From Bacteroidales bacterium (lineage in GTDB: Bacteria > Bacteroidota > Bacteroidia > Bacteroidales > UBA12077): 64,000 bases of DNA. The stretch spans positions 32,001-96,000 of the forward strand of contig JANQHR010000046.1 in NCBI GenBank assembly GCA_028282585.1, written 5' to 3'. Numbering within the stretch: the first letter of the stretch is position 1; every line of letters starts with the position of its first letter. A program made the position numbers and the translations under genes. Below the pieces are notes generated by a model that made no database searches, was not told the origin of the DNA, and saw nothing but the letters and a program-made list of their open reading frames with translations. Shown here piece after piece: positions 8,143-64,000 of this stretch.

Positions 8143-9969
8143 TTAAAACAATTCAAATTCATTATCTAAAGTAAAATCCATATTACTATTCCAGTCCTCT
8201 TCTACCAAGTCCAAATAAGTAGATTCAATTTCATTATCAAAATATAATTGAGTTGTTGGTTTAGAGATTACATCTACCCTATTGATATTTTCATATTCTT
8301 TTTGCAATACCTGAAATAATCTTTCTTCTGAAAAATTATGCTTTTTAAATCCGTTCTCCAGACATAACTTAATTGTTTCATTGGAAAAGCTGATTTCTTT
8401 CTCGTTGAATGTTGCATATTCTTCAATTATTGATAAAATAGTATCAAAACTATATTCAAGCTCAAAGAAGTAACAATACATCGAATTTCTATATATTGAA
8501 AATATTGAATTAAAGAGTGTTACAATTTTTGAGATAATTAGATCGTCCTTTTCAGAAATATCTTTAGGTTTAAACAATGTCATGTCCGCAGGTTGGTCAT
8601 TTTTATCTACATAATTATTTTTTAAATTTTGTAGATAATCATTGAAACTACTTACTTTCATATCCATGTTATGCTTTTTTGGATTAAAAAAAATCAGCGA
8701 TCCTGGATCTGTTGAAAAATTTGCATATTCAATTTCAACTAATCCTTTGTAATTAATCAATAAGTGTACAATAAATTTTAATGTATCGTAAATCGTTGAC
8801 TTTTTATCACCTACACAATAATATCCAAAAAAGAGTTGCGCTTTTACATTCTCTTTAGTCTTGATATAATCCAGAAAATCTATTATTTGATCATTTGAGT
8901 AAGAAATTCTTTTATCTTTATTAAGATATCTGACACTTTCCACGCCTGATTCTGGAGATACTTCAATAACTACTTGATTACAACTATCAGATAAAGCATC
9001 TATAAGTTCTTTAGAAGGTAAACGCCAACAACCATAACCATAATTAAACTCTAATTTTTCTAACTTGATTTTTTTTAATAATTCTATATACCACCTATCA
9101 CTGCCTTCTCTTTCCATACATGTATAGAATGTATTAAAACCAAGATTACATGCTTCTTTAATTGTTTTGATAACAGAATCTTGTGAACGAAATACAGTAG
9201 TAGTCCTATTATTCATTTTCTTTTGCGCAACTGAGTTTCCACCGCAAAATTTACATGCATACTGACAACCTCGACCAACTTCTAATAAAAACATAGGTTC
9301 TTGACTAATCGGCTGAAAATGTGAATAAAAAGTTGATGCGCTTCTATAGTATTCCCAGTTCCTTAATAATTCCACTTCAGTGAAATTTAAACAATTAAGA
9401 TTCTCCTCTTTTCCAACATATGTGATTTCACGATGAATTATTCTTCCCTCATTATTTTTCCAAGTAATGTTTTGTACTTTTTTAAGCTTCTTATCCAATA
9501 AAATTTTATCAAAATTACTTTTTAACTTTACTTCAGTAATTGCGTGTATAAGTTCTTTTATAGGTATTTCTCCATCACCTTTAATAACTGCATCAATAAA
9601 ATTAAATTCGTCAACAATTTCTTCAGCAAAAAGACTTGCCGAGAATCCACCTAAAAAACAAAAAAGATCTGGTTTTATTGATTTTAAATATTCTATAGTT
9701 TCAATTACTACAAGGCTTTCATTAATCCAATGACAATCAAACCCAACTGCATCCAGTGATTCAAAATTAAATATCTCTTCAATATTTTTACTAAATTCTA
9801 AATCGGTATGAATAATTTCTACTTCTACGCCATTATCCTTAAGGACAGATGCGAGTGGAAAGAGCCCCATAGGCATAAAGAATATATTTTTTTGATCCTG
9901 GTCATTTGAGTTTATTAAGCTTCTGTTCCCACAATGCACTAAATTAACACATAACTTATTATTGTTCAT
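8143..9969 (-). CDS. B12-binding domain radical SAM protein
   Basis: N-terminal PMGLFPLASVL, LGGFSAS, KGDGE (cobalamin-binding fold); CxxxCxxC in GRGCQYACKFCGG. Confidence 0.85.
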   Translation of the reverse strand: MNNNKLCVNLVHCGNRSLINSNDQDQKNIFFMPMGLFPLASVLKDNGVEVEIIHTDLEFSKNIEEIFNFESLDAVGFDCHWINESLVVIETIEYLKSIKPDLFCFLGGFSASLFAEEIVDEFNFIDAVIKGDGEIPIKELIHAITEVKLKSNFDKILLDKKLKKVQNITWKNNEGRIIHREITYVGKEENLNCLNFTEVELLRNWEYYRSASTFYSHFQPISQEPMFLLEVGRGCQYACKFCGGNSVAQKKMNNRTTTVFRSQDSVIKTIKEACNLGFNTFYTCMEREGSDRWYIELLKKIKLEKLEFNYGYGCWRLPSKELIDALSDSCNQVVIEVSPESGVESVRYLNKDKRISYSNDQIIDFLDYIKTKENVKAQLFFGYYCVGDKKSTIYDTLKFIVHLLINYKGLVEIEYANFSTDPGSLIFFNPKKHNMDMKVSSFNDYLQNLKNNYVDKNDQPADMTLFKPKDISEKDDLIISKIVTLFNSIFSIYRNSMYCYFFELEYSFDTILSIIEEYATFNEKEISFSNETIKLCLENGFKKHNFSEERLFQVLQKEYENINRVDVISKPTTQLYFDNEIESTYLDLVEEDWNSNMDFTLDNEFELF

Positions 9970-9995
9970 GTTATTATATTATTATGATTAACGGA

Positions 9996-12900
9996 TTAGT
10001 TATTTAAAATCAATTCTAAATTGCAATTAGAATATTTGTTTAAATAATTATTTATTTTTTCATCGGGATTATTCAATAGTTGATTAAGAAAATAAAAAAA
10101 CATTTTTTCAACTATTATCATTTTTTCTTTGGTATGAATATTTTCACAAAACCCCCATTCAATAACAATTCCATTCTTATATTCATGGCATAAGCAAAGA
10201 ATGTTTTTAACTTCTTCGCTTAGTTGTTTTGTTTTATTTCTGGAATTTATATTATATAAGCCTTTATATTCTGACTTATATTTATGGTGGTTCAAAGTTA
10301 AGATTGCCATATCATCTTTTAAATTATCATAGGATATCCCAAGATCATTGGCAAGAAGTAAACTTGGATACATTTGATAATTCATTGCTTCAGTAAAATC
10401 ACGACTAACTGTTTCCAAATAAGTGGCTCCCGTATGTGTATCATCTATATTCACAGGAAGAAATATCTCATTTGCAATGAATCCGATTATTTTATTAACA
10501 TCAATATTTTGTCTGCAAGCAACAGGACATCTTACTACAACTTCCTTTTCGTTCTGTAATTTAGACATTACCAGGTTCATTGCAGCTAATAATACTGTAT
10601 ATACATTGTAATTTTTATCTATAGAACATTTTATTATATGCTCATAAATTTCAACAGGAATAGGACTATGATAAGTAATTAAGTTTCCTTTTTTCTTATT
10701 ATTATTTGAAGAATTACCTAACTTAAGTTTTAATTTTTCTGTTGCTTTAAATAATCCTTTAATCCAAAATCTCTTTAACTCTTCACCATATTGACTTTTT
10801 ATTAAATCATATAAGCGTTCAGAGTAGTCTTTATAGTTAATTTTTAATTGATTTAAATTTTGATTGTTTTTATTGCCAATACCTTGCTTATATAAACTTT
10901 GTAGTTCCTTGATAAGTAAATTAGACGACCATATATCGAACAAAATATGATGTATCACAAAATAAAAAACGTAATTATCATTTGGTAAACAGAACAGTTT
11001 CATTCTTATTAAACAATCTTTTTCCAGATTAAATGGTTTATTATAATCTGTTTTTATTTGTTGTTTCAATTCTGATATATAGTCCTTTTTATTTTCTATG
11101 ACAATTTCCTCAAGATTAAAGTTTAGTTCACTCAAGCTTCGTACTTTCTGTCTAAGTTCTCCATTAACTTTTATAAAATTCGTTCTTAAATTTTCGTGTT
11201 TATTTAATAAATTTTTAACTGCATTCTTTAAAGCAGGTTTATCAATTTTGCTTAAATTTATGGTTCCTTTCATATTTGGATTCACACCTTCCATTAAGGA
11301 TTTAATAAAGAAACTTTGTGAGTATGTTAATGGGTAATATTCCTTCTTCTCAATTGGCCTTAGTACGTAACTGTTTTCGCCTTTATTTGCACCCGATCTA
11401 TTAACGGTTTTAATGAACTTGCTTAAATCTGAAATAGTCGGATATTTCATCAAATCAGCCATAGTTACCTTAATATCAGATTTTTGGAGCTCTGCAGAAA
11501 GCTGCATTGCTTTTAAGGAATCTCCACCTATTTCAAAAAATCTATCGGTACTTTTAATCGTTTTCAAATTTAAAACCTTACTCCATGCATTATAAACCAA
11601 TTCTGACAGTTCATCTCTTTTTTCATCATTTCCGGAAACATCATCTTTAATAATATCCGGTAATGCATTTACATTAATCTTACCACCAGATGTTAAAGGT
11701 AATTTTTCGATAATTTCGACGTAATGCGGAATCATGTAGTAAGGTATTTCTTTTGACAGATAATTTCTTATTTCATCTTTTGTAATAAACTCGTTAGTAA
11801 CAACATAAGCACATAATACTTTATCTCCATTATCCTTAATTCTTACTAAAACCGCTGCATCTTTAATTCCATAAATTTTTAACAAGCACGTTTTTACTTC
11901 GCCAAGCTCAATCCTAAAACCTCGAATTTTTACTTGTTCATCTTTTCTTCCAGCAAATTCTATATTCCCATCAGGCAACCATTTTGCCAGATCACCAGTC
12001 TTATACATTATCTGATTTGGAGAATATGGATTTTTTATAAATTTTTCAGTAGTTAATTCTACGTTATTTAAATAGCCATCACTAACACAAGGTCCTCCAA
12101 TAAATATTTCCCCAATAATGCCAACCGGAAGCATTTTAAGATCTTCATCAAGAATATATATATTCTTATTAGCCACTGGTTTTCCAATTGGTATTTTTAC
12201 ATTTTTTTCGTATCCTTTAACCAGATGGCGTGTAGCTGTAACGGTAGTTTCCGTGGGTCCGTATTCGTTATAAAAATCTAACTGCTCATACAAACTTTTA
12301 ACATGATCTGATTTACATTCATCACCTCCCATAACAATTTTACCCAGATTTTTCAATCCTTTCAATTTCAAATTTTGTAAGTAAGCTGGCACCATATACA
12401 AGCAAGTCACCGCCTTTTTATTTATGTAATCTTCAAATTCTATTTTATCGAGCATTAAGGATTTTTCAATCGAAATAAGTTCCCCTCCAGTCAATAATGG
12501 TAGCCAAAACTGTTCTACTGATGCATCAAAAGACATTGGAGAAAATAACAATACTTTATCACTACTATCTATATTTATATCATTAATTAATGGTATTAAA
12601 TGATTTAACACTTTCCCGTGAGTGATAACTACTCCTTTTGGTATACCTGTAGAACCTGAAGTATAAATTATTTGCGATATATCATAGGATGATATCTCAC
12701 ATAACTCATTATATTTTGTAATGTTTTCTGAATAATCATTGTCACTTAGATTAACAATATTCAAATCAAGATCTAAACTATCTTTTAGTTCCTCTGCTGT
12801 AAGGATTATCTTAGACGAACTATCTTTGATATAATACTTTATTCTTTCGACAGGTGTTTCAGAATCAATAGGTAGATAGGCAGCGCCTGTCTTCAAAATA

Positions 12901-63223: not shown

Positions 63224-63315
63224 TTTAATTTGATTAAAACTTCGACGAAATCTAAGAGTTACTTTGTTTATAGACGTTGATTAATATTCAGATATTTTCT
63301 TAACTGTTAAGTGTG

Positions 63316-64000
63316 TTAAAAATTAAATGAAGAATCATTTATATCGGAAATATTTGTAATTACCTCTTTTTTAGTATTATTCTTGATAACCTCCATACCA
63401 TCTTTATCAAAAGTATTGACACAAAAAGAAAAATCTTTAAATCTGGTAATCCTGAATGTATTATCATCATGCCTTTCTTCCTCTACTTCATCAGAATAAC
63501 TTCTTGCTCCAAGAACCTCATTTAGTACATTCCATCTACGCGCAATTTCTCCATCCTCCACTTTATTACTGAATCCTGTTGAAGTAGCACCATTTACATC
63601 GCTGTACCCAAAGTGTTTAACTTTATTAAAACACTTATCTTTTTTAAAAAATTCGGTTAACTCATTAAAAATTTCAATAGTTTCTCCTGGGAAGCCTACC
63701 ATAATATCTGCAACCATATGCATTTTAGGATTATCAAATTTTATTTCCTGAATTGTATCGTATAACTTGGTTAAGTTAATAGGTCTTCCCATGCGGTCCA
63801 GGATGTGCTCATTAACGTGTTGCAGCCCTATATGCAATTCATTTATCCATCCTTTTTTACATAAATCCTTTATTTCAGTTGAGTACTTCTCTAACCATCT
63901 AATATGTAAATAACTAAAATAAAGATTTGCCAATGGAACAGCATTTTTTATTTCATGAACTAGTTCTATTATTGTTTTGTTGCTATCGATTCCATAGGCA
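63316..64000 (-). CDS. 3' part of a MiaB/RimO-like radical SAM protein (5' end outside the window)
   Basis: Frame is open to the window edge (AYGIDSNKTIIEL...); LHIGLQH, ILDRMGR, DIMVGFPGET, FGYS match the methylthiotransferase-type barrel; the Cys motif is not visible. Confidence 0.65.
   Translation of the reverse strand, partial: AYGIDSNKTIIELVHEIKNAVPLANLYFSYLHIRWLEKYSTEIKDLCKKGWINELHIGLQHVNEHILDRMGRPINLTKLYDTIQEIKFDNPKMHMVADIMVGFPGETIEIFNELTEFFKKDKCFNKVKHFGYSDVNGATSTGFSNKVEDGEIARRWNVLNEVLGARSYSDEVEEERHDDNTFRITRFKDFSFCVNTFDKDGMEVIKNNTKKEVITNISDINDSSFNF

Follow-up and report, generated by a model that had tools for sequence, protein, structure and literature searches.

How, where and when is a nonribosomal peptide tailored at a locus in which no oxygenase is found? 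To our knowledge, the tailoring of such peptides is known almost wholly from aerobes, in which cytochrome P450, iron/2-oxoglutarate (Fe/2OG) and flavin enzymes perform the C-H chemistry. The question is raised by a nonribosomal peptide synthetase (NRPS) locus on contig C124 (121,020 nt) of a draft Bacteroidales genome (G000) of 173 contigs, of which positions 32,001 to 96,000, a stretch of 64,000 nt hereafter called the window, were analysed. No P450, Fe/2OG or flavin oxygenase family appeared in any Pfam scan of the cluster, as a first-pass annotation of the window had already stated, and its ten NRPS modules are accompanied by eight radical S-adenosylmethionine (rSAM) units. The best explanation of the locus as a whole, which we hold to be probable from its sequence, is the O2-independent radical tailoring, on the assembly line, of a long prodrug-type lipopeptide-polyketide; the window would be the middle and late part of one co-directional hybrid cluster of NRPS and polyketide synthase (PKS) genes measuring at least 92 kb. 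The rSAM enzymes would be placed at the residues that they modify, and no O2 would be used.

Radical SAM units inside adenylation domains

All the large open reading frames (ORFs) between 8143 and 64000 lie on the minus strand, with intergenic gaps of 4-156 nt or short overlaps (Table 1); of the 23 rows of ORFs of at least 150 aa in the window, 21 are on this strand, the gene at 63316 appearing in two rows and one plus-strand row lying within an NRPS gene. Domains were mapped by Pfam scans and by profiles iterated from the window's own domains, and NCBIfam was also scanned. Adenylation (A), thiolation (T) and condensation or epimerisation (C/E) domains, found far above the Pfam cut-offs, identify an NRPS assembly line with 10 A, 10 T, 12 full C/E-type and 3 half C domains in the window (Pfam and own profiles). 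The same scans confirmed the count given by the first-pass annotation, ten modules and eight rSAM units, two embedded and six stand-alone, and an all-against-all BLAST sorted the eight into six sequence types where at least five had been announced: the embedded units, the pair at 49237 and 20086 (type 2), the PhpK-family gene, the gene at 8143, the RimO-like gene and the RaSEA-like gene. The window, which makes up 1.3% of the 4.89-Mb genome, holds 8 of the genome's 48 matches to PF04055, about 0.6 being expected; among these eight, the gene 28371-29339 is under the Pfam cut-off (PF04055, 26.2 bits) but over that of TIGR01210. The pocket residues of the A domains, named after published code tables, read Asn, Ser, Asn, basic, X, X, Thr-like, X (then E), Tyr and X, the third, fourth, fifth and ninth being starred, and this string agrees with the colinear core first proposed. 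The fourth module, in the gene 38993-47812, is read as basic from two acidic pocket residues.

Two of these A domains enclose a unit made of an rSAM core and a cobalamin (B12)-binding domain, at 52451-53953 in the gene 50924-55870 and at 40508-42013 in the gene 38993-47812, and a third such unit lies beyond the window; the three copies are 52-60% identical to each other. The insert begins about 25-30 residues past motif a2 and ends about 50 before a3 (a2, a3, a8 and a9 are motifs of the A domain), and positions ~1-115 and ~110-353 of the A profile flank the rSAM unit, as in an interrupted A domain. The a2-a3 inserts consist of Radical_SAM and B12-binding domains and are not class I methyltransferases, ketoreductases or monooxygenases; the AMP-binding_C domain is split at about position 39 by GNAT-like, methyltransferase and PP-loop inserts. 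All three embedded units carry CxxxCxxC and match PF04055 with 64.8-82.5 bits (cut-off 29.5) and PF02310 with 46.5, 39.5 and 47.5 bits (cut-off 32.1). Across 68 aligned homologues, two cysteines of the motif are invariant and one is kept in at least 90%, and the key glycine-rich stretches of the B12 domain are conserved as well.

The order of the two parts sets the embedded units apart. In fact, the rSAM core comes first and the B12-binding domain last, whereas the stand-alone B12-rSAM genes of the cluster show the B12-first order of the canonical class B. In NCBIfam, unit residues 1-245 match positions ~160-400 of several B12-rSAM families and residues 383-500 match positions 17-138 of the KedN5 family, and a profile of the three copies aligns residues 6-236 with AprD4 170-399 and residues 425-497 with TokK 65-138, in the N-terminal B12 domain of that enzyme; the likeness in sequence to TokK, TsrM and CysS is marginal. 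An AlphaFold2 model built from the 68 homologues (predicted local distance difference test, pLDDT, 89.3; predicted template modelling score, pTM, 0.90) is confident and has AprD4, MgmA, MiaB, RimO, TsrM and OxsB as its first Foldseek matches, whose folds are like those of class B enzymes and methylthiotransferases; each covers part of the model, as is expected if the domain order differs. A plausible reason for this circular permutation is that an insert in a loop needs both its ends near each other.

The third embedded module (L002:4254-9554, equal to C124:110954-116254, or 78954-84254 in window numbering) is interrupted twice. Its second insert, at a8-a9, resembles a PP-loop ATPase/N-acetyl-sugar amidotransferase (WbuX family, E 9e-28, below the cut-off), and the same double interruption, rSAM/B12 plus PP-loop/WbuX-like, recurs in 17 ORFs of related loci with a shared pocket type that has no name.

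The embedded arrangement is not confined to this genome. A recurrence scan with one genome per species gave 515 pattern hits, 360 of which encode relatives, and the best 80, in 79 loci, were taken. These loci contain 71 full-length units, 53 of them lying between the N- and C-terminal parts of an A domain in one ORF (18 preceded by a half C and 30 by a full C domain) and the others either cut by contig ends or placed after the A core; in eight loci (L010, L013, L015, L016, L023, L025, L029 and L055) the unit follows a complete A core, sometimes past a duplicated N-terminal A fragment. The carriers are metagenome-assembled genomes (MAGs) labelled Aminicenantes, Bacteroidales, Bacillota, Omnitrophota, Halanaerobiales, Acidobacteriota, Thermoflexales and others, together with the cultured Pseudobacteroides cellulosolvens ATCC 35603 and Desulfosediminicola flagellatus. 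In a large protein collection, 693 proteins of 906-2884 aa have the architecture at E <= 1e-20; the best 120 of them are 50-98% identical, and all but one join Radical_SAM and B12-binding to NRPS domains; one comes from the cultured Clostridium tagluense. The arrangement is common in uncultured anaerobes and apparently unstudied. Among the 53 interrupted A domains, 12 pockets are Thr-like, 9 belong to a type without a name to which the doubly interrupted module also belongs, 9 are Pro-like, 3 Ile-like and 3 Asn-like, 11 are single cases (Leu-, Lys-, Gln-, Glu-, Asp- and Tyr-like, some unnameable) and 6 are unreadable; so varied a set of codes fits a modification that is feasible on most side chains.

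Split modules, stand-alone enzymes and the radical chemistry

The six stand-alone rSAM genes (63316-64000, continuing to 64644; 49237-50895; 28371-29339; 20086-21813; 14728-16389; 8143-9969) are interleaved with particular modules, as the first-pass annotation had observed: they are co-directional with the NRPS genes, and their positions recur in unrelated phyla. Three subunits in the window and a fourth elsewhere in the cluster begin with the C-terminal lobe of a C domain only (half-C), which spans profile positions ~185-453, is devoid of HHxxxDG and stands directly before an A domain, a complete C domain forming the end of the preceding protein. The same kind of start, with its onset at the same profile position and no more than about 40 residues, mostly no more than 20, from the protein start, is found in about 40 ORFs of related loci, some of them truncated where a contig ends. 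In NCBIfam, the half-C best matches the N-terminus of TIGR03443, the model for alpha-aminoadipate reductase.

Proteins that meet at these junctions tend to share a C-terminal tail of the D-F-x-F type, with an aromatic residue at -3 and F, L, I, M or V at -1, usually after Asp or Glu. In the related loci, where the counts were made by eye, the motif ends 18 of the 21 C-ending proteins followed by a half-C gene, 8 of the 9 followed by an rSAM gene, and all 10 rSAMs followed by a half-C gene. Elsewhere, C-ending proteins showed it in 1 of 10 cases before a full C domain, in 1 of 7 before a complete A domain, in 2 of 4 where only the N-terminal part of an A domain comes next, and in 2 of 6 where the locus has no next gene; it was absent from the single one before an embedded-type unit (0/1) and from 3 other rSAMs, and 1 of 29 T-ending proteins had it; overall, 36/40 at half-C junctions compare with 7/60 elsewhere. 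In the cluster itself, the strict tail is present in 63316-64644, 20086-21813, 21797-27202 and two C-ending subunits upstream, and in 29369-30919 it is displaced by one residue. Subunits ending in T have a different kind of end, an acidic tail terminating in Ile, and are followed by TubC_N-type docking domains. The half-C is likely to be the receptor of the D-F-x-F-type tail.

We propose that the stand-alone rSAMs at the splits between a C domain and a half-C/A/T subunit would act in trans on the carrier-bound residue before its condensation. In the window, three of the six genes sit immediately upstream of a half-C gene, with a pyridoxal phosphate (PLP)-dependent enzyme gene between in one case. 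The competing explanation, in which the stand-alone enzymes act after release on the free peptide, in the manner of peptides that are made by the ribosome and modified after translation, and the gene positions record operon history, appears unlikely to us. It can draw on DscE, which methylates finished discodermin in vitro (PMC12858407), and on the three genes (49237, 14728 and 8143) that are not followed by a half-C gene, the last of them coming after the final module. It does not account for the order in other loci, where, in other phyla, a half-C gene comes directly after 10 of the 13 rSAM ORFs that stand alone, which are 41-51% identical orthologues of the genes of type 2, of the PhpK family and of the RimO-like kind, nor for the tail common to rSAMs and NRPS subunits docking at the same junction, nor for the type-2 enzymes preceding Asx- or Glx-coded modules (below). 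Tailoring on the assembly line, as the first-pass annotation phrased it, is read from gene order and fusions; the heavily modified, probably glycosylated peptide made by O2-independent radical chemistry, which it also proposed, stands as far as the sequence goes.

A complex prediction bears on the same point. For the half-C of 16493-20098 (residues 1-262) and the rSAM 20086-21813, with alignments of 30 and 10 rows, the verdict was weak support: the score was 0.37 (runs 0.40, 0.37 and 0.34) and the best of three controls 0.01. Of 80 solved complexes, 58 pass the mark applied, as do 2 of 110 pairs that were mismatched; at scores of at most 0.60, those that pass are 7 of the 80 solved complexes and both passing mismatches. 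The runs agree in at least 49% of contacts, with a partner pLDDT of at least 84 and no interface given. We take the predicted binding of this rSAM by the half-C as a lead only.

The individual stand-alone enzymes suggest what may be made at each site. RimO methylthiolates the beta carbon of an Asp in ribosomal protein S12. The gene 63316-64644 scores 185 bits against TIGR00089 (cut-off 251), with RimO as the next-best family, and 26.3 against UPF0004 (cut-off 27); no TRAM domain was detected in the Pfam scan. Its closest solved structure is RimO 4jc0 (E 1.9e-30), and its translation contains CxxxCxxC and N-terminal cysteines; of three cysteine sites that the alignment with RimO covers, two agree. 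From this likeness and from the chemistry of RimO on Asp, our guess is that the enzyme would methylthiolate the Asn of the window's first module, which it precedes, giving a beta-methylthio-Asx residue.

The RaSEA-like rSAM 28371-29339 is followed by the PLP gene 27253-28374, which falls short of both of its nearest models, NF041364 for GntC (326.6 against 415) and TIGR03947 for VioD (229.2 against 390.9). GntC is the enduracididine-forming cyclodehydratase and VioD the capreomycidine synthase. In the A domain after these two genes, the pocket contains two acidic residues, and the same subunit carries the sole E domain of the window, downstream of that A domain (in 21797-27202; TIGR01720, 111.4 bits against 74.2). 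With low confidence, we suggest that the pair may constitute an O2-independent route to a cyclic basic D-residue for the eighth module. Neither the RaSEA-like nor the PLP gene was found in the 79 related loci. A kinship of the eighth-module A domain with CmnG, which activates capreomycidine, was considered and discarded, CmnG being absent from the 33 Protein Data Bank (PDB) matches at E <= 1e-60; in PDB searches with the A domains, linear gramicidin synthetase comes first only since the scores of two of its domains are summed.

As to the other stand-alone genes, type-2 rSAMs of other loci (10 cases) precede Asn-, Gln- or Asp-like modules in 6 of the 8 that are readable; here, 49237 comes after the Asn module with the embedded rSAM and 20086 before the Tyr module. 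The PhpK-family gene 14728 follows the Tyr module, and in L006 the orthologous gene lies before a module whose code is, less surely, Tyr-like; its family cut-off is missed (Table 1), and no phosphonate genes were found in the Pfam scans of the cluster. We propose methylation of Asx or Tyr residues by the enzymes of type 2 and of the PhpK family. In nine other loci (L069-L075, L078 and L079, from Planctomycetes-labelled MAGs), stand-alone B12-rSAM genes of ~470-510 aa stand in tandem triplets; they have the canonical domain order, and NRPS domains are not in the same ORFs.

Non-radical tailoring domains would add a sugar, an acyl group and a methyl group. Of the three embedded types named by the first-pass annotation, the glycosyltransferase and the methyltransferase hold at Pfam cut-offs, and the GNAT domain is weak. 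In particular, the GT4 domain of 56027-63223, between T and C, is complete by three Pfam models and, among the 79 related loci, was found only in the same-species locus L004; the class I methyltransferase insert lies in 16493-20098; and the GNAT-like insert (~250 aa, a8-a9, ~44198-44947) has a non-significant Pfam match (E 0.048) and none in NCBIfam, its only support being language-model look-alikes, whose best three clusters are N-acetyltransferase/GNAT (score 0.98).

As for the embedded units, we propose that all three would transfer a methyl group to an unactivated carbon of the side chain, probably the beta carbon, while the aminoacyl residue is bound as a thioester to the adjacent T domain. 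A non-methyl radical chemistry of the embedded and type-2 enzymes (desaturation, dehydration, cyclisation, epimerisation or water hydroxylation) is rather unlikely in our estimate. It would be in keeping with the rSAM core, which is best matched by the diol dehydratase AprD4, by MgmA, by MiaB and by RimO, and only weakly by TokK and CysS, both methylases; with the cyclase BchE, which is among the top NCBIfam matches; and with the presence of one E domain only for the ten modules of the window. Against it, the cobalamin-binding domain exceeds the Pfam cut-off in all three embedded units and keeps its glycine-rich stretches in the homologues, and most characterised B12-rSAMs that act on peptides are C-methylases (PMC12858407). 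Furthermore, the C domains downstream of the embedded modules are of the type found after ordinary L-modules and not of the D-donor type, which argues against epimerisation by the embedded units.

Extent, probable start, export and host of the cluster

The features of the window are collected in Table 1, in transcription order.

Table 1. Genes and domains of the window, listed from high to low coordinates
Feature	Coordinates	Strand	Basis or remark
MiaB/RimO-like stand-alone rSAM, 3' part	63316..64000 (whole gene 63316-64644, 442 aa)	-	UPF0004 and Radical_SAM in Pfam; upstream neighbour of the half-C/Asn module
NRPS subunit: half-C, A (Asn), T, GT4 (~59630-60565), C, A (Ser), T	56027..63223	-	Pfam, own profiles, pocket residues
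NRPS subunit: TubC_N-type docking, C, A (Asn; rSAM-B12 insert 52451-53953 at a2-a3), T	50924..55870	-	Pfam, NCBIfam, AlphaFold2 model, Foldseek
Stand-alone B12-binding rSAM, type 2	49237..50895	-	Paralogue of the gene 20086-21813, 45% identity
Alpha/beta-hydrolase (S9/S15/esterase-like)	47928..49196	-	Pfam, NCBIfam
NRPS, two modules: docking, C, A (GNAT-like insert), T; C, A (rSAM-B12 insert 40508-42013), T	38993..47812	-	Pfam, own profiles
NRPS subunit: docking, C, A, T, C	34216..38988	-	Terminal C without cognate A-T and without D-F-x-F-type tail
NRPS subunit: C (variant HHxxxD), A (Thr-like), T	31041..34229	-	Pfam, own profiles
Stand-alone protein of docking domain and C domain	29369..30919	-	Pfam, own profiles
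Small rSAM, RaSEA family (TIGR01210)	28371..29339	-	TIGR01210 229.2 bits, cut-off 212.15
PLP-dependent enzyme, nearest GntC and VioD	27253..28374	-	NF041364 and TIGR03947, both below cut-off
NRPS subunit: half-C, A (two acidic pocket residues), T, E, C (follows D-residues)	21797..27202	-	Aromatic-x-hydrophobic tail
Stand-alone B12-binding rSAM, type 2	20086..21813	-	Aromatic-x-Phe tail; directly upstream of a half-C gene
NRPS subunit: half-C, A (Tyr; class I methyltransferase insert 16922-17953 at a8-a9), T	16493..20098	-	Pfam, NCBIfam
Stand-alone B12 rSAM, PhpK family	14728..16389	-	TIGR04479 587.4 bits, cut-off 600; full-length alignment
Last NRPS subunit: docking, C, A, T, C-like (variant HHxxxD)	9996..14669	-	No TE domain
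Stand-alone B12 rSAM, distantly TIGR04190-like	8143..9969	-	Pfam, NCBIfam
MacB/FtsX-type permease	5750..8122	-	Pfam
ClbP-like S12 peptidase with membrane part, fused to cyclic-peptide ABC exporter (ZmaM-type)	2610..5684	-	Pfam, NCBIfam, structure matches
S51 peptidase and metallophosphoesterase genes	1065..2578	-	Pfam; co-directional; cluster membership uncertain

Beyond both ends of the window, further NRPS, PKS and accessory genes follow, and the cluster therefore spans at least C124:29,500-121,020 (at least 92 kb). Upstream on C124 lie a PKS-NRPS subunit (KS-AT-KR-DH-T-C-A-T-C), the subunit in which the third rSAM is embedded and a C-A-T-C subunit cut short by the end of the contig, which together bring at least three NRPS modules and one PKS module, and also a complete methoxymalonyl-acyl carrier protein (ACP) cassette of the FkbG-K type, with FkbH (TIGR01686, 267.6 bits against 146.65), a free ACP whose match is weak, an O-methyltransferase, an acyl-CoA dehydrogenase and a 3-hydroxyacyl-CoA dehydrogenase. 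Downstream are a metallo-beta-lactamase-fold gene, a type II thioesterase and an Sfp-type phosphopantetheinyl transferase, then LytTR-type regulators. Because of the modules, the PKS module, the third embedded rSAM and the probable acyl-D-Asn start that lie outside the window, the colinear core of the first-pass annotation is a fragment of a longer line and not the whole core; the product would contain at least 13 amino acids and one methoxymalonate-extended ketide.

The late part of the line ends in a C-like domain with a variant catalytic motif (in 9996-14669). No thioesterase (TE) domain was found in the scans of the cluster, which encodes an alpha/beta-hydrolase and a type II thioesterase; the hydrolase 47928-49196 may serve in editing, release or tailoring. 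The C domain at the C-terminus of 34216-38988 is followed by that at the N-terminus of 31041-34229, both being complete and of different sequence types, and the same C-then-C arrangement is present in an independent assembly (L008). At the far end of the window, an ORF at 167-529 (120 aa) weakly resembles CBF_beta in Pfam (E 5e-7); as this family is unexpected in bacteria, the match is probably due to chance or distant.

The export gene 2610-5684 joins an S12 peptidase with membrane part to an ABC half-transporter, as in the ClbP/ZmaM type. It matches PF00144 (209.5 bits) and ABC_tran, with 340 bits for TIGR01194 (cut-off 286), and its residues 32-458 match the full-length ClbP structures 7mdc and 7mde, including the membrane part, at E ~1e-43. 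A ZmaM-like fusion of peptidase and ABC transporter is described in acyl-D-Asn prodrug pathways (PMC9889268). Near-full-length homologous ClbP-ABC fusions stand directly beside doubly interrupted rSAM modules in L043, L052 and L041, the first of which is the cultured Pseudobacteroides cellulosolvens and a possible small model cluster.

A matching start module is present elsewhere in the genome, on contig C126 (10.9 kb), which encodes a NusG-like protein, a fatty acyl-AMP ligase (FAAL) and the domains T, C, A (Asn code), T, E, a D-acceptor-type C and A. The pocket residues of its first A domain are those of the window's first Asn module, and none of the 105 contigs longer than 10 kb has a GC content below its 27.9%, which matches the 28.7% of the cluster. 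It is probable, on these grounds, that this module belongs to the cluster, and an acyl-D-Asn prodrug cap would then probably start the product and be cut off at export by the ClbP/ZmaM-type peptidase-exporter. The NusG-like gene (9247-9768 in L083, which is contig C126) directly precedes the FAAL-starting NRPS gene and is a possible operon-specific antiterminator.

Several points weigh against the explanation favoured here. Between C126 and the end of C124 no sequence overlap was found, and no exact end overlap of 15-200 nt joins C124 to another contig, so the link of the start module is probable and not firm. The genome holds other NRPS/PKS fragments (C97, C148, C25 and C31), and the start module of C126 may therefore belong to another cluster. 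No rSAM reaches the equivalog cut-off of a characterised enzyme, save that of the RaSEA family model; the nearest fold match, AprD4, is a dehydratase, and B12-rSAM families include non-methylating enzymes; five modules have unnameable pocket codes, and the acidic pocket in two hints only at a basic residue; the extra C domain ending 34216-38988 has no explanation; and, as seen above, three of the six stand-alone rSAM genes lie off half-C junctions, and a characterised B12-rSAM acting on a nonribosomal peptide, DscE, does so on the finished product. As regards the fragments, C97, C148, C25 and C31 have different C-domain types and a higher GC and are pieces of a second NRPS-PKS system, probably another cluster; on C97, a signal peptidase II gene lies between a T-domain fragment and a PKS gene.

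The host is of Bacteroidales type and not a clostridium: five ORFs of the genome are above the SusD cut-off, a family found among 14 control genomes only in Bacteroides thetaiotaomicron, and a locus in a Bacteroidales MAG (L004) is 98% identical to the first embedded unit, two more contigs of that assembly carrying the other two units and the same gene order. In 24 other genomes of the genus, embedded-type units occur only in G016, in differently organised giant ORFs, and 16 genomes of other families of the order contain none. The GC content is 27-29% across sixteen 4-kb segments of the window and 28.7% in the cluster, against 31.9% (standard deviation, SD, 1.1) in the genome, and this low GC, with the rarity in genus and order, suggests that the cluster was acquired rather than inherited. 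For the corrinoid genes that the first-pass annotation wished to see checked, CobS is present, and neither CbiD nor CbiB was found, the genome being rated 98% complete; judging from these genes, the host is probably able to finish corrinoids but not to synthesise them, although seven cobalamin-type units are encoded by this cluster alone.

The first-pass annotation did not recognise a characterised cluster, and this holds. That the cluster or a close relative has already been characterised seems improbable: a full-text literature search, which covered few subscription journals, gave no account of rSAMs inside A domains; the best 120 of the 693 relatives have generic names where they are named at all; and a 2025 paper calls the joining of an NRPS with an rSAM C-methyltransferase "an unusual enzyme combination" (PMC12858407). 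The existence of the cultured carriers leaves it some room. An assembly or binning artefact, or a decaying and non-functional cluster, is scarcely credible. In favour of it are a draft in 173 contigs, a cluster that runs into a contig end and a cluster GC that falls some 3 SD short of the contig mean. Against it, the window's 20 cluster genes all have intact ORFs, the catalytic motifs are intact as well, and an independent assembly on three contigs (L004, L008 and L042) has the same gene order with 97-98% protein identity; the related assembly breaks in the same region as C124 (L042).

Beyond this locus, it is conceivable, though we doubt it more than we believe it, that three elements jointly form an undescribed and widespread anaerobic NRPS toolkit: a circularly permuted cobalamin-rSAM in A domains as a general on-line side-chain C-methylase; a half-C that receives the D-F-x-F-type tail, orders split subunits and recruits rSAMs in trans; and new residues, such as beta-methylthio-asparagine and a cyclic guanidino amino acid formed independently of O2. 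Anaerobes may match the tailoring diversity of aerobes via rSAM enzymes, and the fusion has no name in standard NRPS annotation. As the architecture occurs in hundreds of proteins and at least three cultured strains, the results of a single biochemical study could serve to annotate a large class of natural-product pathways that is now hidden; product predictions from metagenomes ignore these modifications at present and could gain in accuracy. If the half-C and the tail are a docking code, they could become a tool for splitting NRPSs and for bringing tailoring enzymes to chosen modules, and the prodrug-type, exporter-activated product suggests a potent antibiotic or a toxin-like compound.

Comparison with known systems

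Interrupted A domains with embedded tailoring domains are reportedly known in TioN, TioS and KtzH, from a review by Labby and colleagues. As there, the tailoring domain lies here within the A domain, in one ORF, at a2-a3 or a8-a9; unlike there, the a2-a3 insert is a cobalamin-type rSAM of ~500 aa in reversed order and not a class I SAM methyltransferase, and the a8-a9 inserts include GNAT-like and PP-loop/WbuX-like amidotransferase domains.

CloN6 is a class B rSAM methylase acting on a nonribosomal product. It shares with CysS and DscE a B12 domain and an rSAM core tied to NRPS genes, as in our cluster, and the expected chemistry, methylation of unactivated carbons, would by analogy be the same. 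However, those methylases are free-standing, with B12 first, and one rSAM accompanies each known line, whereas here three are fused into A domains, with B12 last, and the line has nine rSAMs. CysS belongs to the biosynthesis of cystobactamid (PMC12846815).

The pathways of the ClbP/ZmaM type (colibactin, zwittermicin, edeine and paenilamicin) also have the S12 peptidase with membrane part, with the ABC fusion in the ZmaM-like cases, and their FAAL-T-C-A(Asn)-T-E start module is also present in this genome, its tie to the cluster being only probable. Their hosts are mostly Firmicutes, with some Proteobacteria and Actinobacteria (PMC9889268), in contrast to the Bacteroidales host of the present cluster.

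The RimO-like gene 63316-64644 has the rSAM motif and N-terminal cysteines of RimO. It differs in being below the family cut-off, with TRAM not detected in the Pfam scan, and in its presumed substrate, which would be a carrier-bound amino acid rather than a ribosomal protein.

The C*/ADA domain heads module 1 of ACV synthetase and the fungal alpha-aminoadipate reductases. Like the half-C, it is a C-terminal lobe alone, without HHxxxDG, right before an A domain. It is described as a C-lobe-only domain required for adenylation in initiation modules (PMC7884236); here the half-C stands on internal subunits, behind a complete C domain in trans, with four copies per line and about 40 in related loci, and it correlates with the tail motif on the preceding proteins. 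What is new in the half-C is its use on internal subunits and the company of rSAMs.

Finally, the X-domain of glycopeptide NRPSs recruits P450s. As there, a degenerate condensation-type domain would mark the place where tailoring enzymes reach a carrier-bound intermediate in trans. Here, the enzymes are O2-independent rSAMs whose binding to the half-C is weakly predicted, and the half-C is N-terminal to an A domain and not a terminal full-length domain. If the half-C does receive the tail and recruit rSAMs, it would represent an O2-free counterpart of the X-domain/P450 system.

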